Made by a program: the position numbers and the translations under genes. Below are positions 9,857 through 51,910 of a stretch of DNA of 64,000 bases, piece by piece. The DNA comes from Candidatus Thorarchaeota archaeon (GTDB lineage Archaea > Asgardarchaeota > Thorarchaeia > Thorarchaeales > Thorarchaeaceae). The stretch spans positions 64,001 through 128,000 of the forward strand of contig RDOC01000002.1 of the NCBI GenBank assembly GCA_011364985.1, written 5' to 3'. Below the pieces are notes generated by a model, which did no database searches, was not told the origin of the DNA, and worked only from the letters and a program-made list of their open reading frames with translations. The stretch's first letter is position 1. Each line of letters opens with the position of its first letter.

Positions 9857-9867
9857 TCATAATATGA

Positions 9868-10548: not shown

Positions 10549-10634
10549 AATATTACCCCCTGCAGGAATCAGAAGTACTGTTCAGGCCGTTCAGTATTAC
10601 TATGTTTTTGACTCTTGTGGCATGGTATCGTCTT

Positions 10635-12152: not shown

Positions 12153-12153
12153 A

Positions 12154-35010: not shown

Positions 35011-36150
35011 ATGTCTGAAGAAAAGAAAAGAACCTATTTTTGGCAAGGAAATCAGGCATGTGCAGAAGCAGCAATATCTGCAGGATGTAGGTTCTTCGCA
35101 GGCTACCCGATTACTCCAGCTTCTGAGATAGCAGAAATCATGGCCAAGAGGCTTCCTGAAGTTGGAGGAACATACCTTCAGATGGAAGATGAGATAGGGG
35201 CTATTTCAGCAATAGTTGGGGCTTCATGGGGAGGCATGCTTTCCATGACTGCAACATCTGGGCCAGGTTTTAGCCTGATGCAGGAAAATATAGGTTATGC
35301 AATCATGACCGAAACCCCTTGTGTAATCATTGATGTTCAGCGAGCTGGACCCAGTACAGGACAAGCAACGAAGGTGGCCCAAGGGGATTTTATGCAAGCA
35401 AGGTGGGGCACACACGGAGACCATGAGAGTATTGTACTGGCACCAAATTCGGCTCAGGAGTGTTATGAACTCACTCTGAGGGCTTTTCAAATCTCAGAAA
35501 GCATTAGACACCCAGTTATTCTTCTATCAGATGAAGTGGTAGCACATTCACGTGAAGGTGTCGTAGTAAAGCCAAATGATGATGTACAAGTTCATCGTAG
35601 GTTTGCTAGGAAAAATGAACCACATTTTGGAGGAATTGATGCAAAGAAACAAGCCATAATGCCAAGATTCGGAGATGGCCATGATTTGCTTGTCACTGGT
35701 TCAACTCATGATAAGGAAGGTTTTAGAAAAACATCCGATCCAGAAGCCCATAATGCACTTGTCCGACGACTCGCATTGAAAATTCAGAACAATCGATCTT
35801 TACTGACCGATTTCGTGGTTTCAGGTCCTGAAACAGGTGACTGGGGAATAATCTCGTATGGATGTACATCAAGATCTGTTGAGGAACTTATAGCAACCAA
35901 TTCCAGCAAACTGGCAATTAGATCATTTAGACCCAGAGGAATATGGCCATTCCCTGATGTGGAAATGCGCGAATTTGCGCAATCGGTCGACCGATTATTG
36001 GTCCCTGAACTTAGTCTCGGACAATTATCAAGAGAAGTATCTAGATCTGTGGGATCTGACAAGGAGATAGTGTCATTGACCAAGATTGGTGGTGGGTTAT
36101 TAATCGAACCAGATGAGCTGTTAAGAAAGATATCGGAAGAGCTTTCGTAA
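35011..36150 (+). CDS. korA: 2-oxoacid:ferredoxin oxidoreductase alpha subunit
   Basis: GNQACAE, AGYPITPASE, QMEDE, TATSGPGFSLMQE, QRAGPSTG. Confidence 0.93.
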   Translation: MSEEKKRTYFWQGNQACAEAAISAGCRFFAGYPITPASEIAEIMAKRLPEVGGTYLQMEDEIGAISAIVGASWGGMLSMTATSGPGFSLMQENIGYAIMTETPCVIIDVQRAGPSTGQATKVAQGDFMQARWGTHGDHESIVLAPNSAQECYELTLRAFQISESIRHPVILLSDEVVAHSREGVVVKPNDDVQVHRRFARKNEPHFGGIDAKKQAIMPRFGDGHDLLVTGSTHDKEGFRKTSDPEAHNALVRRLALKIQNNRSLLTDFVVSGPETGDWGIISYGCTSRSVEELIATNSSKLAIRSFRPRGIWPFPDVEMREFAQSVDRLLVPELSLGQLSREVSRSVGSDKEIVSLTKIGGGLLIEPDELLRKISEELS

Positions 36151-38483
36151 ATCGTGATTTCATTCTGCAGTGATACAGCTTGCTGTTCTTGATTGTCAAT
36201 AATCAGGACGATGCTGGTTCGCATCCATACTATCGTTCTAAACGACTTGTTAAGAGAAATACACCATGCTGTAGTGATTTCGAAAAGAATTTGATGCTCT
36301 CCGGGTTGTACCCACACAGGCAGAATAAATGGGATTTCTGTGAATGTACTATGATTATTCAAGGAAATGACTGGTATTTTGAAACTATCGAGGAATATTC
36401 GTGTGCTAACAGATGATATAGATGTACCATTATCATATTGCAAAGAAACCGTTAGGTTGGCTATTTCGTTGTAGTATACTGGGCTAATTGTTACTAATCC
36501 ATCTATGGACCCCTGAATTTGGACTTCGATCTCAGGAGTTTCCAAAAGGGTATATGTTACGTTTACTATCGAAATCATTAGTACATGAATACCAAGAGAA
36601 ACGTTGTTAGGTATTATGACCGAAATTCTCGCTTGTTTGTCAGTCATTACAGAAAATGAAAAAGAGAACTCATCCGTGAAATCATCAATCATAATCCTAA
36701 GAGATTGATTGAAAGAAAACTCAGAATCCAGAGTGAACGCTAATGACAGATTCGATCCTCTGATAGCATTCCATGACGTTTGAGCAGGTGAGAAAAGAAC
36801 AGGATATTGTATTGGGATTTCGATTGGGATTGTAGTTTCTGCTAGGTAAATTGAAGGATTTGTTTCTATAAGAATAGCAAGGTGGTGTATTCCAACTTGG
36901 GTATCTGTGGACACTAACCAATCAATATATGAAATGCCTTGCATATTTGTTGTGCCGATTCCTAAAGTAGCACCAGTTTCATTAATCAATCGTAGATTAG
37001 CTCCCTCAATGGGATCTCCCTGAGCATTTCCAACTCTTATAGCAGCCTCGGAAACATGGCCTAGGACTGTGGGTTGCACAATGTCATAGGAAACATTCGC
37101 GGAGAAGAAGATGGTAATGCTCTTAATATAGTCTAAAGATTCGTGATATAGCGTTCCATTACTTGTAGCTCTTATTAATCCAGAACCGAAAAACGTGTTT
37201 GGGATATTCAGCAAGGCCCGAATAGCCCCACTGACATTGGTTGCATGAAGACTGCTAGCAATTATCATGGTTTCATTTGATATTTCAATGAGAATTGGAT
37301 ATGACTTGATGCTTGTGTCGATTGTTGAGTCTGCGATTTCAATATCGATGACTAAGAATGCTCCACTTGTAGGGTTCTCGGAACAAGTTAAGGATAGAGT
37401 GACGTTTCTGCGAATCGCCTCTATGAGGATTGTTGATGTGCTTGATTGATACAAGGAATTGTGTGCTGTGATATTAACAGACCATATTCCTGGTGGAACT
37501 TCAAAGGGAATTGAAGCAGAATAGAATCCATTGCCAACATTGTCCATTGTTCCACTTGAAAATGAGGTCTGCCAGATTACAAGACTGTCATTCAATCTGG
37601 ATTCTGCCATATTTGTGTGAAGTATTGTAATATTGACCAATTCTGAATGATCTTCATAAGGATTTTCACATAGTATTATATTCGGAGATGATATGACTGT
37701 TATATTCGAGTGGGCAGGAAGGACAGTAATTGGAAGTGAGTCTGAGAATGGAGAGAAAGCTAGTGTACCATTGCCTGATATTGCGAGACTATAGCTTCCT
37801 GGGGGACCAAAGCTATTGCTCCAGTTCAAGGATAGGAATCCATTTGTATCTGTGATAAAATCTTGGGTGAAAACTTCAGTTGATGATTCATCGAAAACTG
37901 CAAGTGATACAGGGCTATTTGACAATACTATGTTACTGTTGTGAATGCTATTGATTCTGAATTTGAGTGTGCAATTGCTATTAAACTCGATATTTGTTGA
38001 TGATTCAGGAAGCACCTCCAGAGAACCTCTTGTAATGTTGATTGGAATTGTATCGCCGCCGCCCTGAGAATACCCGTCATATATTTCTACATTGAATATT
38101 ACATAGGCTACAGATCCATCTATGCCAGGGGAAGCGCAGTCAGGGCGAATCGTGTGTGATGAACTAAGATAGCGTATGTCGGGCAGAGCTCCAATATAGT
38201 AACTATCTGCAAAAACAACTCCTTGATCTGTTACGATTGAAAATGAAACATAACACCATCCATCTTGACTAAAGTCTGCTATTAGCTTGGCAACCATATC
38301 TATTGTTTCGCCAACTTCATAGACCAGTTTGTCGGTTTCAAAGTAGTAAAATTCGAAATAGTATGCTGTGACAGGAGCTGCGATACAAAGAATTGTTAGA
38401 ATTGAAACGGATACGATTACAATAGTCTGGTTATTCAAATAACACACCAAATGGAAGTCTTGACTATCCCTAAAAAACAGCAC
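35784..38483 (-). CDS. Large secreted beta-rich (Ig-like repeat) surface protein; 3' end overlaps korA antisense
   Basis: N-terminal hydrophobic signal-like segment, FETDKLVYEVGETI, many N-x-S/T sequons, S/T/N-rich beta repeats. Start may be TTG 38438. Confidence 0.7.
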   Translation of the reverse strand: MLFFRDSQDFHLVCYLNNQTIVIVSVSILTILCIAAPVTAYYFEFYYFETDKLVYEVGETIDMVAKLIADFSQDGWCYVSFSIVTDQGVVFADSYYIGALPDIRYLSSSHTIRPDCASPGIDGSVAYVIFNVEIYDGYSQGGGDTIPINITRGSLEVLPESSTNIEFNSNCTLKFRINSIHNSNIVLSNSPVSLAVFDESSTEVFTQDFITDTNGFLSLNWSNSFGPPGSYSLAISGNGTLAFSPFSDSLPITVLPAHSNITVISSPNIILCENPYEDHSELVNITILHTNMAESRLNDSLVIWQTSFSSGTMDNVGNGFYSASIPFEVPPGIWSVNITAHNSLYQSSTSTILIEAIRRNVTLSLTCSENPTSGAFLVIDIEIADSTIDTSIKSYPILIEISNETMIIASSLHATNVSGAIRALLNIPNTFFGSGLIRATSNGTLYHESLDYIKSITIFFSANVSYDIVQPTVLGHVSEAAIRVGNAQGDPIEGANLRLINETGATLGIGTTNMQGISYIDWLVSTDTQVGIHHLAILIETNPSIYLAETTIPIEIPIQYPVLFSPAQTSWNAIRGSNLSLAFTLDSEFSFNQSLRIMIDDFTDEFSFSFSVMTDKQARISVIIPNNVSLGIHVLMISIVNVTYTLLETPEIEVQIQGSIDGLVTISPVYYNEIANLTVSLQYDNGTSISSVSTRIFLDSFKIPVISLNNHSTFTEIPFILPVWVQPGEHQILFEITTAWCISLNKSFRTIVWMRTSIVLIIDNQEQQAVSLQNEITIYESSSDIFLNSSSGSINNPPPILVNDTISLSDPTDLDTSLDNCPRLSSGTNNRSTDCANSRISTSGNGHIPLGLNDLIASLLELVAISSSTDLDVHPYEIIPQSPVSGPETTKSVSKDRLF

Positions 38484-38544
38484 ATGATTGCAACGACAAC
38501 TTTAATTCTGGACTAGATGGAGGTTAGTTGAGTCGAAGACTTGG

Positions 38545-38922
38545 ATGGGTAAACATATGGTTGTACGGCTGAAAAATACTGTAATAGAATCAATTGAAGA
38601 TGCTGATACCAAACGATTGAAACTGATACATATTGTTTCCAAGGACGAAGGGGCTGCTATTACTCTTGAATTGCCGGAAGCTCTCTGTGAAACCTTGAAT
38701 ACAAATGATTCAGTGACTGTTACCTTAGATTCGAAAGCGTTGACAAAAGGAGAGAACTCTAGGCTGTATATGGAGGCAAGAGTTTTCAGAACAGATGGAG
38801 AAGATGAATTGAATGTCATTGCAGCTGCAGGTGGACTCAGACTAACCTTACTGATGAATAAACCTACTACTGTGCAAAAAGCCACATTTGATGCCGATAA
38901 GCTCTTTTTTGTAATACAGTAG
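38545..38922 (+). CDS. RNA polymerase subunit Rpo8/Rpb8-like (OB fold)
   Basis: About 120 aa beta-rich; LYMEARVFR...AAGGLRLTL matches the Rpb8 YxMxGxVY...GGLL pattern. Confidence 0.7.
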   Translation: MGKHMVVRLKNTVIESIEDADTKRLKLIHIVSKDEGAAITLELPEALCETLNTNDSVTVTLDSKALTKGENSRLYMEARVFRTDGEDELNVIAAAGGLRLTLLMNKPTTVQKATFDADKLFFVIQ

Positions 38923-39101
38923 ATTTCTCAAGGTCTTGAAGTTATATGTCTTATGATTAGTTACAGTGACCCCTCTTTCTGTCTAGGCTTTCTAAACCTG
39001 TGAGACAGTATATGGAATTCACTCTATGGAACTAATGGTCCTAGAGAAGGGATTAAGCTATTCTGAAAGCCAGTTAGGATTTCGTACCGCTCAAATCTTG
39101 G

Positions 39102-40136
39102 GTGTGGTCTTTGATTGATGAAATATTCAAGGTGATTCAAGATTCGCCATGGTTGTGTCCTGATTGTTCTGGGATGCTTGTGGTGAATCAAGGGTTTTTT
39201 GTGTGTACTGAATGTGGTTTAGCTGTTTCAAGAGAATATGTCATTCCTACCTACCAAATGGGAGAACAAAGGGGAACTGACACACCTGATGCAAGTGTAT
39301 TCGTGTCTCTCGGAAATAGAATGCATATTGTTGATGGACTTGGGAGTTATATTGGATTTCACAAAGAAAGATATTTCCAGGATGCGCATGGTCAAGTGCT
39401 TTCGTCACGAATGCAAAAGAAGTTTAAACGGCTTAAGACAGTCTATAGTACGCGCATTAGAATTGGAAAAGACGAGGCAAAGTATAGAGCACTCAGAACT
39501 CTCAATCACGTTTCAAAATTACTGATGCTAAATGAACAAGTGCGTGATAGGACAGCTTATCTCTACAAGAAGATAGTTTCGGAATCTTCGAACAAAGTTA
39601 CAAATAACATCCTTCTCATTGCAGTTTGTCTTCTTATGGCTGTTAGAGAATTCAAGGAGGGGGCTCCGATAACACTTGAAGAAATAGCCAGCACTTTTGA
39701 GAAATGTGGACATAGGGTTAATGTAAGAGCTATCGTAAGAGAAGCATTGCGACTTAAGTCTATAATGGGTGTGGCTCCAGAAATTCGGAAACCCGAAGAT
39801 TATGTTCCACGAGTTCTCTCAATGCTAATGAATAGCAGAAGAGTTGTTGACAAGGTCATTTCACGAGGATGGGATCCAAGAAGCTATGAGAATGCTCTGC
39901 GTGACAAAATCCTTGAATTACTGGAACTGATTCCAGCTTCGAAACGGGGCGGCCGAAATCCATTCATTTTCACTGTTTCAGCAGCGTATGCCAGTGATCG
40001 ATTAATTGCAGAGAAGCATAATAGACGTTCTGTATTGACCCAAAAGCTCACCTCAAGCGCCACAGAAGTAGCTGAATATAGTATTCGAGATCATTTTGGG
40101 ATGATGAAGCAAGTCGTGGCAATGTCCGATGAGTGA
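39102..40136 (+). CDS. Divergent transcription factor B (TFIIB) paralogue
   Basis: Zn ribbon CPDC...CTECG, GLGSYIG, two cyclin repeats (PITLEEIA; GRNP; TQKLTSSATEVAEYSIRDHF). Confidence 0.85.
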   Translation: MWSLIDEIFKVIQDSPWLCPDCSGMLVVNQGFFVCTECGLAVSREYVIPTYQMGEQRGTDTPDASVFVSLGNRMHIVDGLGSYIGFHKERYFQDAHGQVLSSRMQKKFKRLKTVYSTRIRIGKDEAKYRALRTLNHVSKLLMLNEQVRDRTAYLYKKIVSESSNKVTNNILLIAVCLLMAVREFKEGAPITLEEIASTFEKCGHRVNVRAIVREALRLKSIMGVAPEIRKPEDYVPRVLSMLMNSRRVVDKVISRGWDPRSYENALRDKILELLELIPASKRGGRNPFIFTVSAAYASDRLIAEKHNRRSVLTQKLTSSATEVAEYSIRDHFGMMKQVVAMSDE

Positions 40137-41841
40137 ACTTGAAATGATTGAAAAAGAAATAAAGATTGTAATCTGTTCAAAAAATAGATGCAAGGATTGT
40201 CAGCATGCCTCCGGTCTTGAATGCATGAATCTTGTAGAATTGCAAGACAATACAGATTTACGAATCGTCCTTCTAGTAGAGCAAAGCAAGGGGCTCATAC
40301 ACTTCAGCAAGCTTGTTCGACTACCGAAACGAGCTCCATGGTACAGCAACAGCTGGGATACTGTCTATGTTCACAAGGGAAGAATATTAGATGATCCTAA
40401 TGCTATTGTTGATTTCTATTCAACTGATCCCTATCTTTCCGTATTCTTCAAAGAAGAAAACAGTGGTGACCTATTCTATGAAGCATATCCTATTGTCCGT
40501 TCACCAATTGAAACAGCACTTGTAGAACAACTCGGACGCGATTTGTCACAGATTTTGGAGAAAGAATCTTCAGTTAGAGTAAAGCTAACAAATAGACTTG
40601 AGAGGCTTGCCTTGGCAGTTTCAAAGAAGATTTCAAAATTATTACCAGAAATTAATGATAGCACCCGTAGTAGAATATCAAGCATTGTTGCAAATGAGTC
40701 AACTGTAATTGGCCCGATGATTCCTCTTCTTCTGGATGACGAAGTTGAAGAGATATACCTTGACAGACCATGTAGCTCTCTATATTTTGACCATGCAAGA
40801 CATGGACGTAGTAGAACTTCACTGATACTTGATATGGATATTATTTCCCGTCTTGTAACCTTATTTAGAGCCGAAAGTAATTTGCATTTGGACCGAAAAA
40901 ATCCTTCCTTGAAGACGGATCTGAGTCTTCTTGGAAACTTACTTAGAGTGTCTGTTGGTGCTCCGCCTCTAGCTTCAGATGGCTTTCATTTGGAAATACG
41001 TCGTGCTCGCAAGAAACCATTGTCTTTGCTTGATTTGATAAAGAATGGAACGCTTACTCTAGAAGCAGCCTCCATTCTTATGCTTGCTCTTGGTTGTAGA
41101 TTCAACATTACGATAACTGGTGAGCCAGGATCAGGTAAAACTACCCTCTTGAACGCCTTGGATATGAGCAGCCCTCGTACTTGGAGAAAAGTCTACATTG
41201 AAGATGCTATAGAAAGCAGAACTCAATTGACGCACCATCAACTGAGAATCAGGGTTGATCCTGTTGACGAAGCTAATAGTAGATATAACAAGGACGTAGA
41301 GATTGTCAAGAGTTTACATAGATCGCCCGATTATTTAATACTGGGCGAAATACAGACAATGGAGCATAGTAGGTCCTTATTTCAAGCCATGGCAGCAGGT
41401 TTGCGCACAATCCAAACTTGTCATAGTTATTCTGCAGCAAGTCTGATTTCAAGGTGGGTATACAATCATCGAATAGAAGAATCAAGTCTAGCAATGATGG
41501 ATCTAATAGTGACTCTAAATAGACCAATCCCGGGTGAATCTTTGAGAAGAGTTGTCGAGATTGCAGAAGTGAAGAAGAGGATAGATGATGGGTTCTTACG
41601 TTTTGGAGGCTTGAATATACTCTATTCTGTTGTAGTCTCCAAACCGATCAGTTGGGCGGAAGATGGGGCGTTTCGGTTCCATGCCAACCAAGATGGATTC
41701 GAAAACCATATTCCTGCTTTTGAAATCATTGTGAAGATTCTTCGAGAAAACGTTCTTTCAATTACAGAAGAGAATAGCTTCCATTTGAGCGAGAAGCTCT
41801 GGGAATATGGACATCCCTTGAAGATTGTCGGTAGTGAATAA
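40129..41841 (+). CDS. Type II/IV secretion system ATPase (VirB11/TadA/FlaI family)
   Basis: PLLLDDEVEEIYLD, Walker A GEPGSGKTT, Asp box IED, RSPDYLILGEI, His box TCHS, RRVVEIAE. Confidence 0.9.
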   Translation: MSELEMIEKEIKIVICSKNRCKDCQHASGLECMNLVELQDNTDLRIVLLVEQSKGLIHFSKLVRLPKRAPWYSNSWDTVYVHKGRILDDPNAIVDFYSTDPYLSVFFKEENSGDLFYEAYPIVRSPIETALVEQLGRDLSQILEKESSVRVKLTNRLERLALAVSKKISKLLPEINDSTRSRISSIVANESTVIGPMIPLLLDDEVEEIYLDRPCSSLYFDHARHGRSRTSLILDMDIISRLVTLFRAESNLHLDRKNPSLKTDLSLLGNLLRVSVGAPPLASDGFHLEIRRARKKPLSLLDLIKNGTLTLEAASILMLALGCRFNITITGEPGSGKTTLLNALDMSSPRTWRKVYIEDAIESRTQLTHHQLRIRVDPVDEANSRYNKDVEIVKSLHRSPDYLILGEIQTMEHSRSLFQAMAAGLRTIQTCHSYSAASLISRWVYNHRIEESSLAMMDLIVTLNRPIPGESLRRVVEIAEVKKRIDDGFLRFGGLNILYSVVVSKPISWAEDGAFRFHANQDGFENHIPAFEIIVKILRENVLSITEENSFHLSEKLWEYGHPLKIVGSE

Positions 41842-41925
41842 TAATTTATGTAGTACTCAAATAATCCATGAATTTGGGGGTATTTAAAACATAAAGAACA
41901 TAGACAAAAGCATAGGTATGAATAG

Positions 41926-42129
41926 ATGAAGGCAATCAAAAATCCTCTCAAAGATGAAAGGGGAGGTCCATTGGTAGAAGAAAGCTTACTTCTTGGTCTT
42001 GCTGTGATTACCATTTCGATAGTGATTGCAGTTATTTTTCAGGCGACAGGTTGGGCACAAAATGTAGTTGCTGGGTTGCTTCAGCTATTAGAAGACAGCT
42101 GGAATGGTGTGACACATTTACTTCCTTAG
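41926..42129 (+). CDS. Flp/type IV pilin-like small protein
   Basis: Class III-like leader LKDERG|GPLVEE with Glu at +5, followed by a hydrophobic helix; 67 aa. Confidence 0.75.
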   Translation: MKAIKNPLKDERGGPLVEESLLLGLAVITISIVIAVIFQATGWAQNVVAGLLQLLEDSWNGVTHLLP

Positions 42130-42270
42130 TTTTGCCGTAAATTCATTATAACTATGAGACCCTTACATCTAAGAATAGAAACATACTTGATGAATCAATT
42201 ATAATAGATGCGGGGAAACCCTTATTTGTGGTTAGAGAGGTGCTCTCGCGCTCCAGACTGGCGCAATCAG

Positions 42271-42379
42271 GCTCCGGTAGATATGCTGTAATTTCATTCA
42301 GCATTACCGAGTGTAGTCCGGCCCAGCATGGGGGACTCTCGATCCCCCGACCCGGGTTCAAATCCCGGCCGGAGCACCA
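42271..42379 (+). tRNA. tRNA-Glu(CTC) with a 31-nt intron at position 10/11 (42281-42311), CCA encoded
   Basis: Acceptor GCTCCGG/CCGGAGC, anticodon arm GGGGA-CT-CTC-GA-TCCCC, T arm CCGGG-TTCAAAT-CCCGG. Removing the insert restores GCTCCGGTAG|TGTAGTCCGG. Confidence 0.9.
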
Positions 42380-42384
42380 ATTCT

Positions 42385-44349
42385 TCAACTGATTATGTTT
42401 CTTTTGTAAATTAGTGGAATTCCTACTATAATTATGGATAGTAGAATACTCAATGTGAGTCCAGATACACCGACACCTTGGGCTGCTAGTGCATCTGCCT
42501 CAGAAACAACTATCATAATATTTCCGTAGCATGAAGCAATTGTGGGCTGGACCTTAGTCTGGTAGTGAAGAATATGAGTGCCAATTCCTAATATGGGAAG
42601 ATGAATACTAACAAATCCATTTTCTTGAGATGTTGCCGTCATTGTGATTTTATTCCATGTATAACTGAAATCTACGTCTTTCAAATAGGTACCATTAAGA
42701 CCACGAATCATGAAGTTTACGATGATTTCCTGCGCTGGTGGAGTAATCTCGTAGCTGTCGGTCTGAATCGTTACAGGCATAACTCTTGTCACGACAAAAG
42801 GATAGGAAAGATTAGCTGACAGTTCTAATCCTGATTGTGTCCCGTAGTAGAATAGAGTGAAGACGTAGACATTTTCAATTACTGGAGCAACAAGATGAAT
42901 TTCAGCAACGCCTTCTGAATTCGTTGTGAAGATTTCTATTGTTTCGTTATCGAGACCCTTAAGTTCAATCAATCTCTCGGATATTCCACCGTTATGGTCC
43001 TTCAATTTGACTTCAAATGATATACCTTGTGAAGGAGATGCATATCCAAGGATGCTATTGGATATGATTACTAGATTTGGTTGAGACCATACGACAACAT
43101 CTTGGAAGTGAGTCGTATTTGAAATGTAGTTGTTGCCTGTGATTCTGATTTCTAGTGAATGTGAGCCTATGCAATCCTTGAATGCAAATGGAACATCTAC
43201 ATAGGTTAAACTATAGGCAATTCTTGTAGACATTTCCTCGCCTGATAACAGGTCATGTAGGTTAACTACAGAATTTGGAATATACCTACCTAAGGTATCA
43301 GAAACTTCAATTCTGAATATGTTATCGATTCCTAAAACTACATTGGTCGGAATTTTCGTATCTAAAAGAACTGGACTAATTACATTGAAGTTGACTTCGA
43401 TATAGGTAGCTGCATTACGATCTGTACCATTGTATTCTATTCTAACAGTATTTGGTCCAAGAAAGAATCTGGAATCTATGCTGATTTGGACCATGGCGTC
43501 CCCATTTTGGTTTGTTGTTATGGAATCAAAGAGAGCATTGTTAATAAGTAAGTCTAAGACAGAATTCGGAGTCCGGCCTTCGTGTGTTTCAAGATGTAGT
43601 TGAAATTCCAAAGTATCTGCCAAATTGACATTAGCAGGAAGAGAAGTATCCAAGTCTATGACACTTTCGATTTGTTCAACAGTGTATTGCAGAGAAATCT
43701 CAGCTTCAGAATGATGTGATTCTAAGCTTTGTTCAAACTTGACCAAAAAATCATTGATACCTAATGAGCTCCAAGTCAAATTGCACTGGAACATGAAGAA
43801 TGCGTATCCAGTTTCATTTGTTGTACTGGATGCCATTTCGGATGCAATTGAAAATAGAGAAACTTGTGCTCCGGCTATGGGTTCATTCATGTCATTTAGA
43901 AGTGTGAGTTCAAGGAGAAAGTAGTCGTTGGGATGCAGTGTTTCTGAGTAGTGTTCAATGATTATTTGTGATCTTGAGAGTATATGGATATAAGCCCATT
44001 GAGAAGAAGATGCAAGAGCTAGAGATTCATTTCCCAAGAAAGTTACGTTCACAGGTGTTATGCCCAAAGGATGATTCGATGGAATACTCCATATTATTGA
44101 CGCATAGCCCTCTTGATTTGTTAGCGCAGAACCTAGGCATACGTCCAAAATAGCATCATAGAAGCTAATGACTTGATCAGGAACGGGATCACCATACGTC
44201 CCATTTTGCAACAATTGTGCAGATAGAAGTATCTCATCTCCTCTGACCACAATAACCTCGCCTTCTGCATGAACATCTGTGGCATTAGATATTGATATGA
44301 CTATCAAACCAACAATACCAATGACTAATAGAGTAAGAAATCGTTTCAT
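42385..44349 (-). CDS. Membrane-anchored Ig-like repeat surface protein
   Basis: Signal peptide (MKRFLTLLVIGIVG...), repeated TNxxGxA beta units, C-terminal TM helix plus basic tail (YKRN). Confidence 0.8.
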   Translation of the reverse strand: MKRFLTLLVIGIVGLIVISISNATDVHAEGEVIVVRGDEILLSAQLLQNGTYGDPVPDQVISFYDAILDVCLGSALTNQEGYASIIWSIPSNHPLGITPVNVTFLGNESLALASSSQWAYIHILSRSQIIIEHYSETLHPNDYFLLELTLLNDMNEPIAGAQVSLFSIASEMASSTTNETGYAFFMFQCNLTWSSLGINDFLVKFEQSLESHHSEAEISLQYTVEQIESVIDLDTSLPANVNLADTLEFQLHLETHEGRTPNSVLDLLINNALFDSITTNQNGDAMVQISIDSRFFLGPNTVRIEYNGTDRNAATYIEVNFNVISPVLLDTKIPTNVVLGIDNIFRIEVSDTLGRYIPNSVVNLHDLLSGEEMSTRIAYSLTYVDVPFAFKDCIGSHSLEIRITGNNYISNTTHFQDVVVWSQPNLVIISNSILGYASPSQGISFEVKLKDHNGGISERLIELKGLDNETIEIFTTNSEGVAEIHLVAPVIENVYVFTLFYYGTQSGLELSANLSYPFVVTRVMPVTIQTDSYEITPPAQEIIVNFMIRGLNGTYLKDVDFSYTWNKITMTATSQENGFVSIHLPILGIGTHILHYQTKVQPTIASCYGNIMIVVSEADALAAQGVGVSGLTLSILLSIIIVGIPLIYKRNIIS

Positions 44350-44618
44350 TGGATTACCTTCGATTGAGCTAGTTGGCTACTATACTTGATGAGATGAACT
44401 CTCATTCCTTGTTGCAGCACAATTTCACAAGATGTGCGGCAGTTCCTTCTTTACGTTCTTCACACTCATTTTTAACCTCCTACAAATCCGGCTTCATATC
44501 TATTGAAAAAACAGAAGTCTGGGGGAGTTCATATGTGTTAGAAAGAACAGGAGCTTGGTCATGATTGTAGTACTTAGTATCCACGGATACTGCTGTTGAT
44601 GAAGCGAGTGATGTATTA

Positions 44619-47600
44619 ATGACTAGGTGTAAGAAAAGAAGAACAACCCATGATACTTCCGAAGAAGCAGTTTTACGGAGTACTTGGATTATTGAGGTTC
44701 TTTGGATTGTGACCACTCTGATTAGTTCACTCTACCTGCTTCTTGCATACCTATTGCCACTTGCTAATGTTACTGGTTCCCTCTACTTTCAGTTCAAATT
44801 CCAGATAGAGATTCTAGTCTGTATTGTCCCTCTTAGTCTGTCAATCATTATGACATTTGGTAGATTCGAGAGGAAAGAAATACTGATTACTATAAAGAAT
44901 GACATACTTGTTTTTAGTGTGGATAATCGATTGATTGGAATAAGTTGTCTTGATATTCTAACGGTGCCAGGATCTGTACGAATAGAAGATAGAAACCAGC
45001 CGGAGTATGATACGACATTTCTTTTAGCATTACGAGCTGGAATAAATGCCAGAGTTACTATGAGTTACGAAATTGGTGTTCAGAATAATGAACCGTTTCT
45101 TCGAATCTTCATTACTGCCTTAGGAAATGAGTTAGATGAAATAACTAGTAGAATTAGAACAGAAGCTACTAGAGCCGAAGCAATATTCTTAGCTTCATTT
45201 AATAATATTGAACTGAATCAGCTAAACAATATTGAATTAAGAAAAGCTGTGCTTTCCCATCTTGGAAAGGAATTTCGCGAATCGAATCGAATCACTCTTG
45301 ATGATTTCCCAGAGCATCAGACATTTCTCGTTTTGGAAGGAAAACCACGAGTAATGCCTTTGTATGATGCGTCTCAAGTGGGGACATTCATTTCGACTGT
45401 ATTGAAGCAAGGATATACAGCCAGTTTGTCCTGTGTCTTTTCTAGAGCCAAACCTGGAAGAGAACGAAGAAGACTTGAAGGAGAATGGAAATCGATACGT
45501 GCAAAGGAAAAGAGAAACGAAGACTCCTTGGAAGATCAGGCAACAAAGAAGAGGCTTCTTCGCCATTACAATGAGATTCAAGGAAAGGAAGCTTGGTTTG
45601 ATGTATCTGTGGCATTATCCATTGTTGGAGATAATGGGGATCATCTTCGGCAATCAGAAGAAGGTCTTTTGGGGTTATTTTACTCTATATGGGGTGGAGA
45701 TGAAACTATTGATTTGAGAAGAAGAAAATTGAATCGGAGAACGGCCTATCGAATGCTTGCAAGACGACATTTGAAATCTCAAAGGATGCATGTAAGCCGT
45801 CTTGCTGCTTTTGTTAATACACCGGTACAGCAATTGCCAGTAATTGCAGCTTCTCTTCTGCCCACATTTTCAATACCTCCAAATCAAGTTGTTGATAATG
45901 AACTTATAATAGGCAAGGTTTCTTTTGGAGGTCATAGGCTTAACGATGTAGGACTTAAAATTGAATGGCTACGAGAACATATCGCAGTACTTGGAGCAAC
46001 AGGGACAGGAAAGACTACCCTTGTGAAACAGCTAATGGCAGAACTTGGTGCAAAAACCGACATACCATGGTGGATTTTTGATATCAAAGGATCTGAATAT
46101 ATTGATTTGATGAATTCATGTCGTGGAGATATTCACGTTTTACGTCCTGGAGTCGATTCTTCCTTTGTAATTGATTTAATGGATTCCGAAATTGATTCCA
46201 TTGAAAGGCATGCACATACAACCTTTGCGATTTTAAAAGAACTACTTAGGGAAAGAGGGACATCATCAGAGCTAACCCCAGCAATGGAGAGACTACTTCG
46301 TTCTGCTGTTCTCTCAGTAGCAAGATCTGAACAAAATGAGAACTCGATACAGGCTCTTGTTCAGAAGATAGTGGAGTTATCAGATAAAGATCGAGTAGGA
46401 AGTATGACTAAGGATGCTCTCTTGAATCGTCTGGAAATCTTGTCACGAGAACCTCTCGGAGCTATTCTTGCTGGAGGTTCTTCCGCGATTAAGATTTCGG
46501 ATATGATGGAAAAACGAGTGATATTTGACCTACATCATGTAGCTATGGTTGGAGGAATGGAAGCAGCCAGACTGCTTTACAATCTTATTGCCAAAAGAAT
46601 TTTTGATTATGCCCTTCATAGAGGAATCACACCAGGGCTTCAACATGTTGTTGTTCTTGAAGAAGCTAGCAATTTGGTGCCAGAAAGCTATTCTCGTGAC
46701 ACTGCAGCTGATGTTACAACAGGAGAATCAATGGTGATGCTGCTTAGGGCTACAGGACAGGGAGTTGTTGTAATCTCTACGAGACCAAATATATCATCTA
46801 ATATTCTTGCAAACACATCTACAAAGATAACCTTTAGACTACCCTATGATAGCTCTATTGGCAGCAGATTCATGTCGCTTGATGAAACTCAAGAAAGGTA
46901 CCTTAGAGTTTTGAAAAGAGGTCATGCTTTGGTGATACTCCCTGGTACTGAAACCTTCGAGATGTTGACGTATCCTTTTGAAACATCGTTGACTTCAGAA
47001 GTAGTGCCAAGTAGAATATCAATGGAACATGAACAACCTATGGTCAGCACAGAGAATGAAATATCTTCACATGATGCTATTGAATATAAGAAACGACTTG
47101 TTGAATCTGAAATAGAAGAAAAGATTACGAAACATGGCACTGTCTTTGACCGAATTGGAGAAGTTGGAAATCATGTTGTAGCTTTTCTCGCATCAAGAGG
47201 AATGGCCACACAAAAGCAAATCCAAGCGCTTTTGACAACGATTGACTTCGGAATTGAGGATGAAGATATCAATGAGATGATCCGTGATCTTGTATCTCTT
47301 GGGACTATTGAAAGAGAAGCATTGTCACTAGTATCTGGAGGCTTTGTCTTTACACTTCCCGGTTGTGGTCTTGAAGCAGTAAAGGCTGCAATAATTGATT
47401 ATATTGTAAATCGTTTAGGATCATATTATCAGGAACAAGAGGAGAAAAGTAAAGGTGGACTAGATCTCCTTATCGATGATAAGGCCATTCTTATTCTACC
47501 TGAACATTTGAAAGCATCATCAATTGAAAAAGTACTTCATAGTATCAGAAGCCGAATGAATGTTCTAGGTAACAGCTTCGCAGAATTGATTGTGGTTGTA

Positions 47601-48419
47601 AGGGGGAGTGTTGCTGCGGCAAAGCTACGAGAAATGATGGATATTTCTGAGGATTTTGATGTTGTGAATGTTGTATCTGCATTTCCAAGTTCTTTAGACA
47701 ATATGATAGAGAAACTGATTCCTAGAATAGACCAAAAAGAAGTTCAGACAAAACAATCTTGTCTTGAATCATCTGAACCGGAATCTGAACAAATCGATCT
47801 TATTGGATCTATCCATGAGATGGGTACTGCTACTAGTCGAGCTATACAAATGAGGCTTTGGTTTCAGCTCATGCAGGATTTCATCGACCTTTCCGATGGA
47901 CAAGTGGAATGGTCAGTGCTGTTGGAGTTCATTAACACAACTGCTATGCAATCCTTGAAAGGAAGATCTACACTATTGAATGCAGAAGAAGGAAAGCGCG
48001 CCTTAACTGAGTTGCTTGCTGATGAAGTCCTTATTGCGGTTCGAGTTGGCAGTGGATTTGACTTCGTAGATCTGTCTGAAGGATTATGGGTTTTGAATTC
48101 TGTAGTTCTGGAAGGGCTACGAAATCGTGTCCTCGATGTGATTGAAACTGAACTGAAAAGGAGAAGAATGCAGGTCTTCAAGGGTCATGGATACTATGAC
48201 TTCTGTGCGAATGGGGTATCCTATGTTGTCTTTCCTAATCAGCAGCAATTGAATACTCTATTACATTTACAAAGTGATATTGCCTGCAGAACTTGCAAGT
48301 CCAGACAAATTGTCTGCCTTCTTACAGCAGCTGAGTATTTGGAAGATAATGTAGTTATGCCACAAAACATGCATTTGTTTGACTTTTCGGAGTATGTATC
48401 TGCTGTAGGTGTTTCCTGA
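44619..48419 (+). CDS. Membrane-anchored VirB4/HerA-like (DUF87) ATPase with large N- and C-terminal extensions
   Basis: Two N-terminal TM segments, HIAVLGATGTGKTT, FDIKGSEY, VVLEEA, STRP, wHTH-like segments after the ATPase domain. Confidence 0.82.
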   Translation: MTRCKKRRTTHDTSEEAVLRSTWIIEVLWIVTTLISSLYLLLAYLLPLANVTGSLYFQFKFQIEILVCIVPLSLSIIMTFGRFERKEILITIKNDILVFSVDNRLIGISCLDILTVPGSVRIEDRNQPEYDTTFLLALRAGINARVTMSYEIGVQNNEPFLRIFITALGNELDEITSRIRTEATRAEAIFLASFNNIELNQLNNIELRKAVLSHLGKEFRESNRITLDDFPEHQTFLVLEGKPRVMPLYDASQVGTFISTVLKQGYTASLSCVFSRAKPGRERRRLEGEWKSIRAKEKRNEDSLEDQATKKRLLRHYNEIQGKEAWFDVSVALSIVGDNGDHLRQSEEGLLGLFYSIWGGDETIDLRRRKLNRRTAYRMLARRHLKSQRMHVSRLAAFVNTPVQQLPVIAASLLPTFSIPPNQVVDNELIIGKVSFGGHRLNDVGLKIEWLREHIAVLGATGTGKTTLVKQLMAELGAKTDIPWWIFDIKGSEYIDLMNSCRGDIHVLRPGVDSSFVIDLMDSEIDSIERHAHTTFAILKELLRERGTSSELTPAMERLLRSAVLSVARSEQNENSIQALVQKIVELSDKDRVGSMTKDALLNRLEILSREPLGAILAGGSSAIKISDMMEKRVIFDLHHVAMVGGMEAARLLYNLIAKRIFDYALHRGITPGLQHVVVLEEASNLVPESYSRDTAADVTTGESMVMLLRATGQGVVVISTRPNISSNILANTSTKITFRLPYDSSIGSRFMSLDETQERYLRVLKRGHALVILPGTETFEMLTYPFETSLTSEVVPSRISMEHEQPMVSTENEISSHDAIEYKKRLVESEIEEKITKHGTVFDRIGEVGNHVVAFLASRGMATQKQIQALLTTIDFGIEDEDINEMIRDLVSLGTIEREALSLVSGGFVFTLPGCGLEAVKAAIIDYIVNRLGSYYQEQEEKSKGGLDLLIDDKAILILPEHLKASSIEKVLHSIRSRMNVLGNSFAELIVVVRGSVAAAKLREMMDISEDFDVVNVVSAFPSSLDNMIEKLIPRIDQKEVQTKQSCLESSEPESEQIDLIGSIHEMGTATSRAIQMRLWFQLMQDFIDLSDGQVEWSVLLEFINTTAMQSLKGRSTLLNAEEGKRALTELLADEVLIAVRVGSGFDFVDLSEGLWVLNSVVLEGLRNRVLDVIETELKRRRMQVFKGHGYYDFCANGVSYVVFPNQQQLNTLLHLQSDIACRTCKSRQIVCLLTAAEYLEDNVVMPQNMHLFDFSEYVSAVGVS

Positions 48420-48455
48420 TTCTTTGGAGACATATATAGTTAGACTTTTCTTTGG

Positions 48456-49259
48456 TTAAATGGCAATTCGAGTGCAAAGTACCTTTCTACCTCGAAGAAG
48501 CCCGGATAGAACATCCTTCTTTTGAAGATTGAATATTGCTATGTCGATTCCAGAATTGGACAGCCAAAAAAGCTCTTGGAGCTTCTTTGTCATTCCTCCA
48601 GTAACATCAGTGGCAGAAGAGGGCCCAGCCATTCTTAGTATTTGTTCTTTGTTCGATTGATCAATAAGAGGAACCAGTTTAGCTGAAGAATCAAGGTGTG
48701 GATCGCCTTCAAAGATGCCGTCGACGTCTGTTCCCATATATAGGGCATTGGCTTTGAGCCGCTTGGCAAGGTATGCAGCAATTGTGTCGCCACTTAAAAT
48801 TGAAGCTCCAAGAATATTGTCAAAGCATACATCACCATGTAGTATTACAATGATACCAGAGTCTATTGTTCTCTGAATGGATGTGATAGCAAAACTTTCG
48901 ATTATCCTGTCATTGAGCAAAACAAGAGAAAATGGAGAAAGTATAACGCTTTGAAGGTTATTAGCCTTCAAGATTGATTCTACCTCTAAAGAGAGTATAC
49001 TCATATTATGACGAATGTGTGGAATACCTCTAATCAACTGCCTTTTGTCTGTAGAAACATCGGAATAACCGTATGAATGTGCAGCCTGATGTCCATGTGC
49101 TCCCCCTCCAAGAACAAGGATAAGTTTTCCAGTGTAGTCTTTGATTTCCTTGGCTATTAGCGTTAGATTTGCTATATTGACTTTCGGAGGAACAGATGAT
49201 TTGTGTGTTATGACAGACCCGCCAAGCTTTACAATGATGAGTTTCTTTGCTTGAGGCAT
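48456..49259 (-). CDS. ipk: Isopentenyl phosphate kinase (amino-acid kinase family)
   Basis: VKLGGSVITHK, GGGAHGH, HGDV, SGD, DVTGGM. ATG at 49259. Confidence 0.9.
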   Translation of the reverse strand: MPQAKKLIIVKLGGSVITHKSSVPPKVNIANLTLIAKEIKDYTGKLILVLGGGAHGHQAAHSYGYSDVSTDKRQLIRGIPHIRHNMSILSLEVESILKANNLQSVILSPFSLVLLNDRIIESFAITSIQRTIDSGIIVILHGDVCFDNILGASILSGDTIAAYLAKRLKANALYMGTDVDGIFEGDPHLDSSAKLVPLIDQSNKEQILRMAGPSSATDVTGGMTKKLQELFWLSNSGIDIAIFNLQKKDVLSGLLRGRKVLCTRIAI

Positions 49260-49396
49260 TTGCTTAGTCAAGGCAGAAGGCCTTCTTATGGATATTCCCA
49301 TGTAATAAGTGGAATCTGATTTCAAACACAAGACAACCTTTTTATCCGTATCCAATTCCGTAGCTTTGGATACCTCAAGTGAGGATGAATTGCCGA

Positions 49397-49708
49397 ATGA
49401 CTCAAAAAGCAAGGATTCGATTGTCGAGCACAAGTACTGAACACCTTGATAGTGTGTGTAATCAAATCAAGAGAATTACTCGTAAGACAGGTGTTCGTAT
49501 GGCCGGTCCAATCCCATTGCCAACCCGAAAAATGGTAGTTCCGACTCGGAAGACGCCATGTGGACAGGGTTCTGAGTCATGGGATAAATGGGAAATGAGA
49601 GTCCATAAGCGTCTGATAGATATAGATGCTGATGAACGAGCCATTCGGCAGATTATGCGTGTTCGTATTCCTGATTCCGTTTACATTGAGATTGAGCTGA
49701 CAGGGTAG
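49397..49708 (+). CDS. rpsJ: 30S ribosomal protein uS10
   Basis: [36 protein letters not shown]. Confidence 0.97.
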
Positions 49709-49795
49709 TTAATGCTTTCCTTGTCTTGACACAAACTCTTTTTGTACAAACTCTGTTTTCTATATGTTTGAATAAGACAGAGGCGTTTCGAGAAG

Positions 49796-51619
49796 ATGTG
49801 TGGGATTATTGGTGTTGTCCAAAAACGTGGTCAAGTAGCTCCATTTTTACATCAGGCTTTGAAACGTCTTGAGTATAGAGGGTATGACTCTGTAGGGGTT
49901 ACTACCATTTCCAACAACGAATTGTCAATGAAGAAGGATAAAGGTAAGATAGAAGAAGTCCATGTGAAACTAAATCTAGATGATATGCCCGGGAATATTG
50001 GAATTGGACATACTAGATGGGCGACTCATGGAATTCCTTCCATGTATAATTCCCATCCTCATTTTGATTGTAAAAATCAGATTGCTGTTGTTCACAACGG
50101 CGTCATAGACAATTTCCTAGAATTGAGATCCGAGCTGAGCTCCAAGGGACATGAGTTTAGTTCGGAAACAGATACCGAAGTCATTCCGCATATGATTGAG
50201 GAGGGTATGGCTGAAGGACACAGCTTAGTTGATGCATTGAAAGAAGTTACGAAACGTATTGAAGGTACTTACGCGATTGTGGCGATGTCTACTCAAGAAT
50301 CTGATAAGATTGTATGTACACGTGATGGTAATCCTCTTGTAATAGGTAGGAAAGAAGGGGCTTCGTATGTTTCATCGGATATTCCCGCCTTCTTGCCAAT
50401 GACAGATGACATGATTCTTCTCCTTGATGGAGAGATTGCAGTGCTAAGTGCAGGTGGAGTAGAGATTCGTAAACTATCAGATGATTCTCTGGTTGATAGA
50501 GAAACTATCAAGATAAGCTGGACAGCAGATCAAGCTGAGAAAGGTGGATTTCCTCATTTTATGCTAAAGGAAATTCATGAACAGCCTGATGCCATAAGAA
50601 ATACTCTTCGTCTACGTTTTGATACGATACAAAAGGCTGCTAAAATGATACAGGAAGCTAGACGGGTCTACTTCTTAGCAATGGGTACATCTGGTCATGC
50701 AGCGCTTGCCGGTCGTCATATGTTTGCTGCACTCTCAGGTATATTGCCTATATTTGAGCTTGCCAGTGATTTTCAGGATATAGTTTATGGATCTCTGTCA
50801 GAAAAGGATTGTATTGTTGCAATAACTCAATCGGGAGAAACAACTGACACAATAGTATCAGCAAAGTATGCGAAGAGTTTTGGAACAAAGGTATTAGCAA
50901 TCACAAATGTAGTGGGCAGTTCGATAACAAGAATTGCAGATTATACTGTAATTACTCAGGCAGGACCAGAAATTGGTGTTGCGGCAACAAAGACATTTAT
51001 GGTGCAGCTAACAGTCCTAGCTCAAATTGCCTTAGCTGCGTCTGAACAGACTGGATTTCTAGCAGAATATCTAATAGAGAAGAAACGAAAGTGTCTTCAA
51101 GAATTACCAGATTTGGTATCTCAAGTTATTTCAAGAAATGAGGAAATTGCGAGACGTCTTGCTGGAGAGCTATATAAGCGTTCAAGTCTACTCTTTCTTG
51201 GAAGAGGAGTATCGATTGCCACAGCAGAAGAAGGTGCTTTAAAGCTCAAGGAGATTGCTTACAATCATGCTGAAGCATATTCTGCTGGAGAATCAAAGCA
51301 TGGACCAATCGCACTTGTTGAGAAAGGATACCCTGTTGTTTTTGTTGCACCAAGAGATGAAACAAGAAATCGGATAATTGGAAATGTGATGGAAATGAAA
51401 GCACGTGGTGCCTCTATTATTTCTGTTTTAGAAAGAGGAGACCAAGAGCTTGGGGATTTGTCCGACTATTCGTTTGTTGTTCCAGAAGGCATTGAACCCG
51501 AGTTTTCGACAATGCCATACGTAGTACCACTTCAGCTATTTAGCTACTACATGGCGAGAAGAAAAGGGTTTGACCCTGACAAACCTCGAAATCTGGCAAA
51601 GTCGGTAACAGTCCTTTGA
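49796..51619 (+). CDS. glmS: Glutamine--fructose-6-phosphate aminotransferase
   Basis: MCGIIG, LEYRGYDS, GHTRWATHG, QSGET, PRNLAKSVTV. Confidence 0.97.
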   Translation: MCGIIGVVQKRGQVAPFLHQALKRLEYRGYDSVGVTTISNNELSMKKDKGKIEEVHVKLNLDDMPGNIGIGHTRWATHGIPSMYNSHPHFDCKNQIAVVHNGVIDNFLELRSELSSKGHEFSSETDTEVIPHMIEEGMAEGHSLVDALKEVTKRIEGTYAIVAMSTQESDKIVCTRDGNPLVIGRKEGASYVSSDIPAFLPMTDDMILLLDGEIAVLSAGGVEIRKLSDDSLVDRETIKISWTADQAEKGGFPHFMLKEIHEQPDAIRNTLRLRFDTIQKAAKMIQEARRVYFLAMGTSGHAALAGRHMFAALSGILPIFELASDFQDIVYGSLSEKDCIVAITQSGETTDTIVSAKYAKSFGTKVLAITNVVGSSITRIADYTVITQAGPEIGVAATKTFMVQLTVLAQIALAASEQTGFLAEYLIEKKRKCLQELPDLVSQVISRNEEIARRLAGELYKRSSLLFLGRGVSIATAEEGALKLKEIAYNHAEAYSAGESKHGPIALVEKGYPVVFVAPRDETRNRIIGNVMEMKARGASIISVLERGDQELGDLSDYSFVVPEGIEPEFSTMPYVVPLQLFSYYMARRKGFDPDKPRNLAKSVTVL

Positions 51620-51661
51620 GGACCTTAAATACACCAATCATGATTATATGTGTGAATCCAG

Positions 51662-51910
51662 ATGCAGGGAGTACTTCTTAGTCCGCTCTTAGACTTTGCA
51701 AATTTAATAGCTGCATATTTCGCAGAGATTTGGGACTTTCTCATTTTCATTGGAAGAATATCAGCCGTAATAGTAGTCTTGGTTGGGGCTATTCTCTGGT
51801 TTACTGAAGTCAATTGTTCCAAAGGGAAGAGCTTGGTCATGAGTGGAGTCTTGCTTGCCATTATAGTGCAGTACTTTGTGACTTATCCTCCAGGTTTCAT
51901 ATTAGGCTAA
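51662..51910 (+). CDS. Small two-TM protein, VirB2/TrbC/CedA1-like pattern
   Basis: 82 aa; hydrophobic helix (VIVVLVGAILWFT), basic loop (SKGK), second hydrophobic helix (LVMSGVLLAIIV). Confidence 0.5.
   Translation: MQGVLLSPLLDFANLIAAYFAEIWDFLIFIGRISAVIVVLVGAILWFTEVNCSKGKSLVMSGVLLAIIVQYFVTYPPGFILG

Follow-up and report, generated by a model that had tools for sequence, protein, structure and literature searches.

A TFB- and rpo8-linked filament ATPase locus beside a predicted VirB4-like membrane ATPase in a conserved chromosomal block of Thorarchaeota

Genes at the locus

The window analysed here is a stretch of 64,000 nucleotides (G000:C15:64001-128000) of a Thorarchaeota metagenome-assembled genome (MAG) which comprises 1.7 Mb in 22 contigs and is 74% complete. 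Gene calls combine a listing of open reading frames (ORFs) with sequence searches against Pfam, NCBIfam and the PDB. Two groups of genes within this window are the subject of the present report. The first one, module A, starts with rpo8, encoding the RNA polymerase subunit Rpo8/RpoG (125 residues; 38545-38922, + strand), and continues on the same strand with a divergent paralog of the transcription factor TFB/TFIIB (39102-40136), a T2SSE ATPase of the TadA/CpaF/FlaI type (40129-41841) whose start overlaps the stop of the TFB gene by 8 nt, and Flp67, a 67-residue candidate for an Flp-type pilin (41926-42129). The second one, module B, consists of the gene for the surface protein Big654 (42385-44349, - strand) and the divergently oriented gene for P0001, our label for a 1266-residue DUF87 ATPase (44619-48419, + strand). 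A preliminary description of the window had combined these genes with two further ones, Big899 and the 82-residue protein TM82, into one DNA-exchange system; all genes which it listed are indeed present where it had placed them. We consider it rather probable that the window contains two independent, vertically inherited chromosomal modules which are neighbours within a conserved block next to a Cdc6 gene (33321-34529). The housekeeping genes which separate and surround the two would have no part in either.

Module A in Thorarchaeia and other Asgard archaea

Module A, composed of rpo8, the divergent TFB paralog, the TadA/CpaF-type ATPase and the Flp-type pilin, is found Asgard-wide. In a phylum-wide sample of 151 Asgard genomes an ortholog of the TFB paralog is present in 137, with 26-45% identity over the full length, while the canonical TFBs of the same genomes reach just ~1e-10 against it. 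The ATPase ortholog likewise occurs in 137 of the 151 genomes. For those 92 genomes from outside the Thorarchaeia which carry both genes, with Jordarchaeia, Freyarchaeia and Atabeyarchaeia among them, we computed the distance between the two from the match coordinates. It amounts to less than 3.5 kb in 47 genomes and to 3.5-16 kb in another 24, so that both genes lie within 16 kb of each other in 71 of the 92; a single genome shows a separation of ~16.5 kb, and in 20 the genes are located on different contigs of fragmented MAGs, as is consistently observed in two families (f7 and f14). The linkage of filament ATPase and pilin to a TFB of their own, put forward in the preliminary description, thus extends across the phylum and is far stronger than could be seen from the window.

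The TFB paralog is the fourth TFB of its genome. It is made up of a zinc ribbon, a family-specific region which replaces the B-reader and linker, and two cyclin-like repeats; its invariant residues include CxxC...CxxC. The Pfam TFIIB repeat is recognised at 1.9e-6. While the three canonical TFBs of the genome score 60-87 bits per cyclin repeat, the paralog reaches 27 bits for one repeat, and it obtains 56 bits with PRK00423 (cut-off 384). The ATPase matches PF00437 at 6e-19 (68 bits, cut-off 24.9), and its best NCBIfam match is the TadA family (1e-26). Among PDB entries it is closest to afGspE (5e-33), CpaF (8e-21) and FlaI (3e-18), with VirB11 reaching merely 2e-4. Of the earlier assignment as a VirB11/TadA-type ATPase overlapping the TFB gene, the TadA type and the overlap have therefore to be retained and the VirB11 part to be dropped. 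The Walker A motif reads GEPGSGKT. N-terminally, the ATPase bears a CX4CX2CX7C pattern; 62 Thorarchaeal orthologs share its C16, C21 and C24 without exception, and 97% of them retain C32.

A profile of rpo8 orthologs matches Schizosaccharomyces pombe Rpb8 (1.1e-7) as well as Rpo8/RpoG from archaea (1e-4), and PF16992 is matched by 11 of 15 orthologs. The gene is the sole rpo8 copy found in the genome. It adjoins the TFB paralog in Thorarchaeia and in two other Asgard families; in a search with profile hidden Markov models built from Thorarchaeal orthologs it stands beside the TFB gene in two of 15 fetched loci from outside the Thorarchaeia. Since its association with the TFB-ATPase pair is conserved and parallels that in subclade 4D of the Thermoproteales (see below), we regard rpo8 as a member of the module and not as one of the interspersed housekeeping genes among which it had initially been counted. 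Rpo8 has been reported from Thermoproteota and Asgard archaea only (PMC13257274), a restriction which fits the distribution of the TFB-ATPase-rpo8 association.

Flp67 shows, by inspection, the motif of a class III signal peptide. In 14 Thorarchaeal orthologs a variable leader of 13-30 residues ends in an invariant G/A at position -1, which is directly followed by GPLVEESLLLGLAV... with Glu at +5; the predicted mature part comprises ~54 residues. A homolog is detected, by the same profile approach as for rpo8, in 12 of the 15 loci fetched from outside the Thorarchaeia. The Flp homologs of other families read G/A followed by SP(L/I)VEEG and are encoded beside tadA, tadB and tadC genes. Some Asgard families indeed carry genes for a ParA/TadZ-like ATPase, TadB (PF00482, 3e-7) and a TadC-like protein within the module A operon. 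Complete operons are seen in some families, for instance in G026, a genome of 1.4 Mb on one contig, where rpo8 and TFB are followed by genes for a pilin-like protein of 131 residues, a ParA/MinD-like ATPase, the TadA-like ATPase, a T2SSF protein with four transmembrane (TM) helices (PF00482, 3e-7), a protein with three TM helices and the Flp homolog.

Within the 64-kb window no gene for a T2SSF platform, a prepilin peptidase or a VirB6-like channel is present, as the preliminary description had noted of these three parts. A class III peptidase (PF01478, 44.7 bits, cut-off 26.5) is encoded elsewhere in the genome (G000:C16:166440-166721). A T2SSF platform (PF00482) was not found in the 74%-complete assembly; 18 of 24 genomes of the Thorarchaeal family, however, possess a gene for a T2SSF protein of 508 residues at a separate locus, in the order Nre, unknown protein of 453 residues, T2SSF, unknown protein of 217 residues (e.g. 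L054:6810-11887). In our assembly, contig C13 stops inside the Nre gene of this locus. In two further genomes the T2SSF gene itself is interrupted, namely by a gap of 100 N in the one-contig assembly of the genus member G003 (L239:1405-1504) and by a contig start in G008 (L240). Since three or more of the six misses within the genus can be put down to contig ends and gaps, the apparent absence of the platform is best taken as an assembly artefact. The genome-wide search for missing parts thus yielded the peptidase in the genome itself and the platform in its relatives. We would like to note that the platform locus repeatedly breaks assemblies, which hints at hypervariable or repeated DNA at this place.

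A partly known association of TFIIB, RPB8 and ATPase is represented by the window in its Thorarchaeal version. In subclade 4D of the Thermoproteales an operon has been described which encodes an ATPase with a Cys-rich N-terminal domain, a protein with 4-5 TM helices, a TFIIB homolog and RPB8 and which contains no pilins; a transcription-related role was suggested for it (Makarova et al. 2016, PMC4858521). A survey from 2026 considers 4D a probable remnant, reports 4D-specific components from 17 Asgard genomes and finds Asgard type IV filament (T4F) genes rarely in one locus (PMC13705601). Compared by description with the 4D components (ATPase arCOG05558, TFIIB homolog arCOG05559), module A shares the secretion ATPase with a small N-terminal Cys domain, the TFIIB homolog and the adjoining Rpo8/RPB8 gene. 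It differs in the Flp-type pilin which follows the ATPase, in the TadB, TadC and ParA-like genes of some families, in that the Thorarchaeal locus is devoid of a gene for a 4-5 TM protein, the platform being encoded elsewhere, and in the two cyclin-like repeats of the Asgard TFB paralog, where arCOG05559 is said to have one. To the known association our comparison would add its phylum-wide occurrence, the inclusion of a conserved Flp-type pilin and, in several families, the arrangement as an ordered Tad-like operon.

Module A also resembles the Tad/Flp (type IVc) pili of bacteria and the archaeal Epd pilus, with which it has in common a TadA/CpaF-type ATPase, a very small candidate pilin without globular domain, the predicted leader cleavage after G/A and the Glu at +5 as well as, in other Asgard families, a TadB/TadC-type platform and a ParA/TadZ-like ATPase. 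Unlike these pili, it possesses a dedicated TFB paralog and a linkage to rpo8, its components are scattered in Thorarchaeia, and position +6 of Flp67 is Glu and not Tyr. In our reading, module A would be what the Thorarchaeia possess of a Tad/Epd-like type IV filament locus found Asgard-wide. The TFB paralog inherited along with it most likely serves as an initiation factor dedicated to the module A regulon or is itself controlled by the machinery. Among known organisms, the Asgard archaea are most closely related to eukaryotes; both their surface machines and their gene regulation are barely charted. In module A an alternative factor of the TFIIB family would be tied to one cellular machine throughout a lineage, a case concrete enough to be tested.

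In seven sampled loci, representing six Asgard families outside the Thorarchaeia, a gene for a protein of ~145 residues is the divergent neighbour of rpo8 or of the TFB paralog (L140:3693-4127, L141:9693-10133, L142:12180-12614, L143:12141-12590, L146:13325-13756, L151:7370-7849 and L153:7360-7794). Its N-terminus resembles M..AR.FFKELA...G..V.V.T..GK.Y.G.LKGYD and is possibly Sm-like; the gene may also belong to the conserved surroundings of module A.

Module B, a predicted VirB4-like ATPase and a surface protein

P0001 carries two N-terminal TM helices and is encoded as a single full-length copy in all 24 family genomes (40-67% identity). By sequence its core belongs to the HerA clade, with a DUF87 match at 1e-15 and with HerA chains leading the profile matches. 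Sequence and profile searches against the PDB return HerA-clade chains via the P-loop region alone and no VirB4 chain. The scores of P0001 with the VirB4 model TIGR00929 (21 bits, cut-off 643), the CedB model NF041017 (15 bits, cut-off 700) and the FtsK motor PF01580 (16.5 bits, cut-off 24) all remain below threshold. The CedD model NF053655 gives 52-55 bits (cut-off 600); since a canonical HerA encoded in the same window obtains 66.7 bits with this model, the match is generic. P0001 is clearly different from the soluble HerA of ~500 residues which is paired with NurA, being TM-anchored, 1266 residues long and devoid of a NurA neighbour. The canonical HerA of the window (10635-12152, - strand) does form such a pair with NurA (12154-13320, - strand), and its surroundings comprise genes for a DUF460 protein, CTP synthase and MCM (7398-17994).

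The predicted fold relates P0001 to VirB4. The AF2 model of residues 1-800, calculated from an alignment of 48 sequences, has a pLDDT of 81.6 and shows the two N-terminal TM helices. The top ten Foldseek matches of this model are all chains of TrwK/VirB4 from plasmid R388, the best one at 3.6e-21 over ~800 columns, followed by HerA at 5.5e-15 and the VirB4 C-domain alone at 4.7e-12. When the ATPase domain (residues 418-790) is superimposed by VIA-align, four folds are tied, namely DndH-C (Z 28.7), the C-terminal domain of VirB4 (Z 28.6, root mean square deviation (rmsd) 3.0 Å over 331 residues), TrwB (Z 26.4) and HerA (Z 26.0), whereas the FtsK motor (Z 17, ~213 residues) and EccC-type ATPases (Z ~17) are more distant. 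In the whole-chain comparison, residues 69-800 of the model align with residues 2-803 of VirB4. The initial view of the large ATPase as TM-anchored, VirB4-like and distinct from soluble HerA is borne out at the level of the predicted fold.

The C-terminal 480 residues, modelled with a pLDDT of 77.6, are predicted to form two modules, both of which place an alpha/beta domain after a pattern of three helices and two strands. Only the first of the putative winged helices (~840-916) is secure, with a Z of ~10. A Foldseek search with this extension returned nothing at E <= 1e-3, and its remainder is without clear relative. Searched with the P0001 profile, a collection of 1.8 billion representative sequences yielded 268 clusters at E <= 1e-30. 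In many of them the match extends from the TM region through the whole ATPase; clusters with a name come from Helarchaeota or Promethearchaeota. In other Asgard families the P0001 homologs comprise 810-980 residues, possess N-terminal TM helices and reside in housekeeping surroundings, where CBS-domain-like and amidohydrolase-like genes, as judged from N-terminal sequences, are recurrent neighbours. A search for shorter relatives of the ATPase returned Thorarchaeal fragments only, and an atlas look-up generic DUF87 clusters only.

In its predicted fold, P0001 thus resembles TrwK/VirB4 from the N-domain through the ATPase. Fusions of VirB3 to VirB4 exist in the T4SS (type IV secretion systems) of bacteria, and the two-helix membrane hairpin at the N-terminus of P0001 resembles VirB3 or such fusions. 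Unlike VirB4, P0001 bears a C-terminal extension of ~480 residues with winged-helix modules, falls short of TIGR00929, stands without other T4SS genes alongside and is an Asgard core chromosomal gene.

Big654 is a predicted secreted beta-sandwich repeat protein with an N-terminal signal peptide and a C-terminal TM anchor. It evolves fast (27-43% identity), and its matches to Big_1, MG4 and bMG3 all remain below threshold. The gene adjoins that of P0001 in all Thorarchaeal loci and in G025, a genome from the sister order, and the pairing is kept nowhere else. Module B is, to the extent that the P0001 model is accurate, a membrane-anchored VirB3-VirB4-like ATPase together with a divergent surface protein. 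P0001 would represent a hexameric-type pumping ATPase composed of an N-terminal TM hairpin, a VirB4-like N-domain and ATPase, and winged-helix modules, and most likely acts as an envelope-associated translocase. DNA is our best guess for its substrate; both substrate and direction of transport are inferred. If the predicted fold is correct, module B provides an Asgard-wide membrane-anchored VirB4-like ATPase which may move DNA or protein through the poorly understood envelope of these archaea.

The intergenic region from which Big654 and P0001 diverge (44350-44618) contains, in ~45-60% of the Thorarchaeal loci, a conserved element (CATATGAACTCCCC-like, with TCTCCTAT and GTTTTTA) which may be the site of a regulator.

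Probable independence of the modules and alternative explanations

Each module occurs without the other across Asgard lineages, and this leads us to consider them independent. G025, which is 96% complete, contains P0001 and Big654, while no match to the module A ATPase is found at 1e-15 and its TFB matches are of canonical level only. Conversely, module A is present in G026 (98% complete, one contig), G037 and G035, in which P0001 is unmatched. Where both occur outside the Thorarchaeia, they are far apart or on separate contigs.

Within the Thorarchaeia the arrangement is far more uniform. In our synteny set, which comprised 17 fetched regions and then ~63 loci longer than 15 kb, a block of 20 kb is collinear in the order POR, Big899, rpo8, TFB, ATPase, Flp67, Big654, large ATPase, AA-kinase, S10, GlmS, TM82, SufS-like and NTP-transferase. 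All 24 family genomes and the ~63 loci keep every gene of the block in synteny, as one copy of full length, with 40-90% identity. The synteny across Thorarchaeia envisaged as a check was hence found for the whole block. As the housekeeping genes keep the same collinearity, it is uninformative with respect to function. In the rearranged Thorarchaeal loci (L110, L113, L114 and one more) the TFB-ATPase pair is kept in all but one and the pair of Big654 and the large ATPase in all.

The proposal that all parts form one domesticated apparatus for cell contact and DNA exchange, built after Ups and Ced and switched by its own TFB, is partly supported by these data; we nevertheless judge it unlikely. 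The likeness to Ups and Ced of the Sulfolobales under TFB3 is evident in that a chromosomal, vertically inherited pilus, a TFB paralog and a membrane-anchored ATPase of the HerA/VirB4 superfamily come together, and the control of both Ups and Ced by TFB3 is a real precedent (PMC6101594, PMC6101591). The N-domains of CedB and CedD have been reported to be VirB4-NTD-like, too (PMC11868833), as is predicted for the membrane-anchored P0001, and Flp pili are reported to be able to serve DNA uptake in Micrococcus (PMC4322843). Moreover, the parts stay within ~20 kb in some 63 Thorarchaeal loci despite local inversions. Yet this linkage is shared by the housekeeping genes, and modules A and B dissociate across Asgard lineages; outside the Thorarchaeia they lie apart, and either is encountered in genomes in which the other was not found. 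Unlike TFB3, the TFB paralog is of full length; P0001 is far from reaching the CedB and CedD models; the CedA1-like candidate TM82 is multicopy, occurs in unrelated contexts and is unsupported; and VirB6/TrbL is unmatched in the incomplete genome. A scan for upstream 7-mers in ~60 Thorarchaeal orthologs, too crude to carry much weight, revealed gene-specific TATA-like boxes and no motif common to the candidate parts yet absent from housekeeping genes, which was its outcome for the shared promoter motifs suggested as a check. A decayed integrated conjugative element or provirus might be suspected from the tRNA gene inside the region, from a slightly lower GC content (0.39-0.40 compared with 0.42-0.44 upstream) and from the fact that VirB4-like and T2SSE-type ATPases occur on such elements. 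We reject this explanation, which is close to refuted, on the grounds of the universal single-copy, full-length synteny in the 24 family genomes and ~63 Thorarchaeal loci; furthermore, distant homologs reside in housekeeping contexts, and Pfam scans of the window turned up no integrase or relaxase ORF, as had already been remarked in the preliminary description.

The individual modules allow for other interpretations, too. Module A might not encode a pilus at all and might be a filament remnant which has been repurposed in a transcription pathway, its ATPase operating together with TFB and Rpo8 on RNA polymerase or chromatin. The trio of RPB8, TFIIB homolog and ATPase with Cys-rich N-domain in the pilin-less 4D operon (PMC4858521; PMC13705601) is in line with this idea, as are the unlinked platform of the Thorarchaeia and the conservation of the TFB paralog, which within the Thorarchaeia (61-86% identity) far exceeds that of the ATPase (43-60%). 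We nonetheless hold it for improbable, given that a conserved Flp-type pilin directly follows the ATPase in Thorarchaeia, that TadB, TadC and ParA-like genes complete a full Tad-type parts list in the same operon elsewhere, and that the peptidase is present in the genome. A somewhat better case can be made, even if we doubt it, for P0001 being no DNA exchanger and serving instead either as an FtsK-like pump which clears the chromosome at the division site or as an ATPase in the secretion or assembly of envelope proteins, be it Big654 or others. Across Asgard families P0001 is inherited vertically as a core gene, in one copy and amid housekeeping genes, its architecture combines a TM anchor, a pump and a C-terminal winged helix in a way reminiscent of FtsK and TraB, its structural neighbours include secretion ATPases of the EccC type (Z ~17), its pairing with Big654 is conserved in two orders, and the search of our incomplete genome for FtsK (PF01580) was negative or marginal, revealing no bona fide FtsK. 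Big654, however, carries a signal peptide of its own, P0001 itself scores below the PF01580 cut-off and matches VirB4, not FtsK, from end to end of the fold, and several Asgard families do without P0001, which would be odd for an essential function in division.

A number of observations weigh against the reading of the block as a filament locus and a VirB4-like translocase which are independent of each other. In Thorarchaeia both modules remain within ~20 kb even after local rearrangements, so that a lineage-specific functional link is possible. The platform and the peptidase are both unlinked to module A in this lineage, and Flp67 is unmatched by the Pfam models for Flp_Fap and class III signals at E <= 5. 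As no curated Flp model is matched, we describe Flp67 as working like Flp and not as a member of that family. The survey mentioned above views Asgard T4F genes as scattered and the 4D components as remnants (PMC13705601), a picture compared with which module A appears more ordered. As to P0001, the VirB4-like N-domain relies on a single AF2 model in which all 800 residues were folded together, and the complete alignment with VirB4 has a global TM score of 0.32 and an rmsd of ~16 Å, as domain orientations differ. The best matches of the winged helix include the protein-binding WHB domains of cullins, so that DNA would be no more than a possible ligand of this element. Finally, both modules are known here from gene identities, predicted folds, conservation and linkage, from which we infer the filament, the transfer of DNA and the control by TFB.

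More speculatively, the linkage by which a specialised TFB, rpo8 and a type IV filament ATPase are held together could be ancestral to Asgard archaea and Thermoproteota and reflect a direct mechanism between TFB and ATPase, which we regard as quite improbable in the form given here. The four-Cys N-domain of the membrane-associated ATPase would hold or release TFB via the region which replaces the B-reader, and filament assembly or surface contact would gate initiation in the manner of an anti-sigma switch, with Rpo8 as a possible docking subunit.

Further features of the block

Two surface proteins of Ig-like type had been proposed for the region. Both are predicted to be secreted or anchored proteins; the attribute "Ig-like", however, reaches no Pfam or NCBIfam threshold in Big654, where a weak Big_1 match is observed, nor in Big899 (35784-38483, - strand), where MG2 and bMG3 matches are sub-threshold. 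Big899 is a predicted secreted repeat protein with a signal anchor and many NxS/T sites for N-glycosylation, and its orthologs comprise 603-899 residues. The gene stays beside rpo8 in rearranged Thorarchaeal loci and was not found outside the Thorarchaeia; its membership in module A or B is unproven.

TM82 (51662-51910, + strand), a two-TM hairpin, is separated from P0001 by the AA-kinase, S10 and GlmS housekeeping genes and followed in the block by a class V aminotransferase-like gene. It had been regarded as VirB2-like, an assignment which finds no support here. There are 2-5 near-identical paralogs per Thorarchaeal genome, one of them among L11/L1/L10, HDAC and radical-SAM genes, and in family f12 TM82 is found ~21-25 kb from the TFB gene. 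Searches of Pfam (to E <= 5) and NCBIfam gave no match to TrbC/VirB2 or any other family, T4SS neighbours are lacking, and nothing beyond the two-helix hairpin supports the assignment. As to a channel, TrbL/VirB6 (PF04610) is unmatched in the incomplete genome, and CedA itself was not searched; NF041016, considered as a CedA model, turned out to be ArnR.

Between Flp67 and Big654 an intron-containing tRNA is indicated by a partial Rfam match near 42310-42368. The tRNA (42271-42379) was overlooked by ARAGORN, and Rfam covers model positions 9-63 alone (32 bits). The overlapping ORF of 78 codons which is read from the other strand (42152-42388) is probably spurious. At the other end of the block, the Big899 ORF reaches into the gene for POR alpha (35011-36150, + strand) and runs antisense to its 3' end for 366 nt, over positions 35784-36150. 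A convergent overlap of both genes by 280-366 nt is observed in all Thorarchaeal relatives examined (L024, L025, L029, L033, L034 and L038), and in the present genome the antisense frame stays open in only 5% of resamplings of synonymous POR codons.

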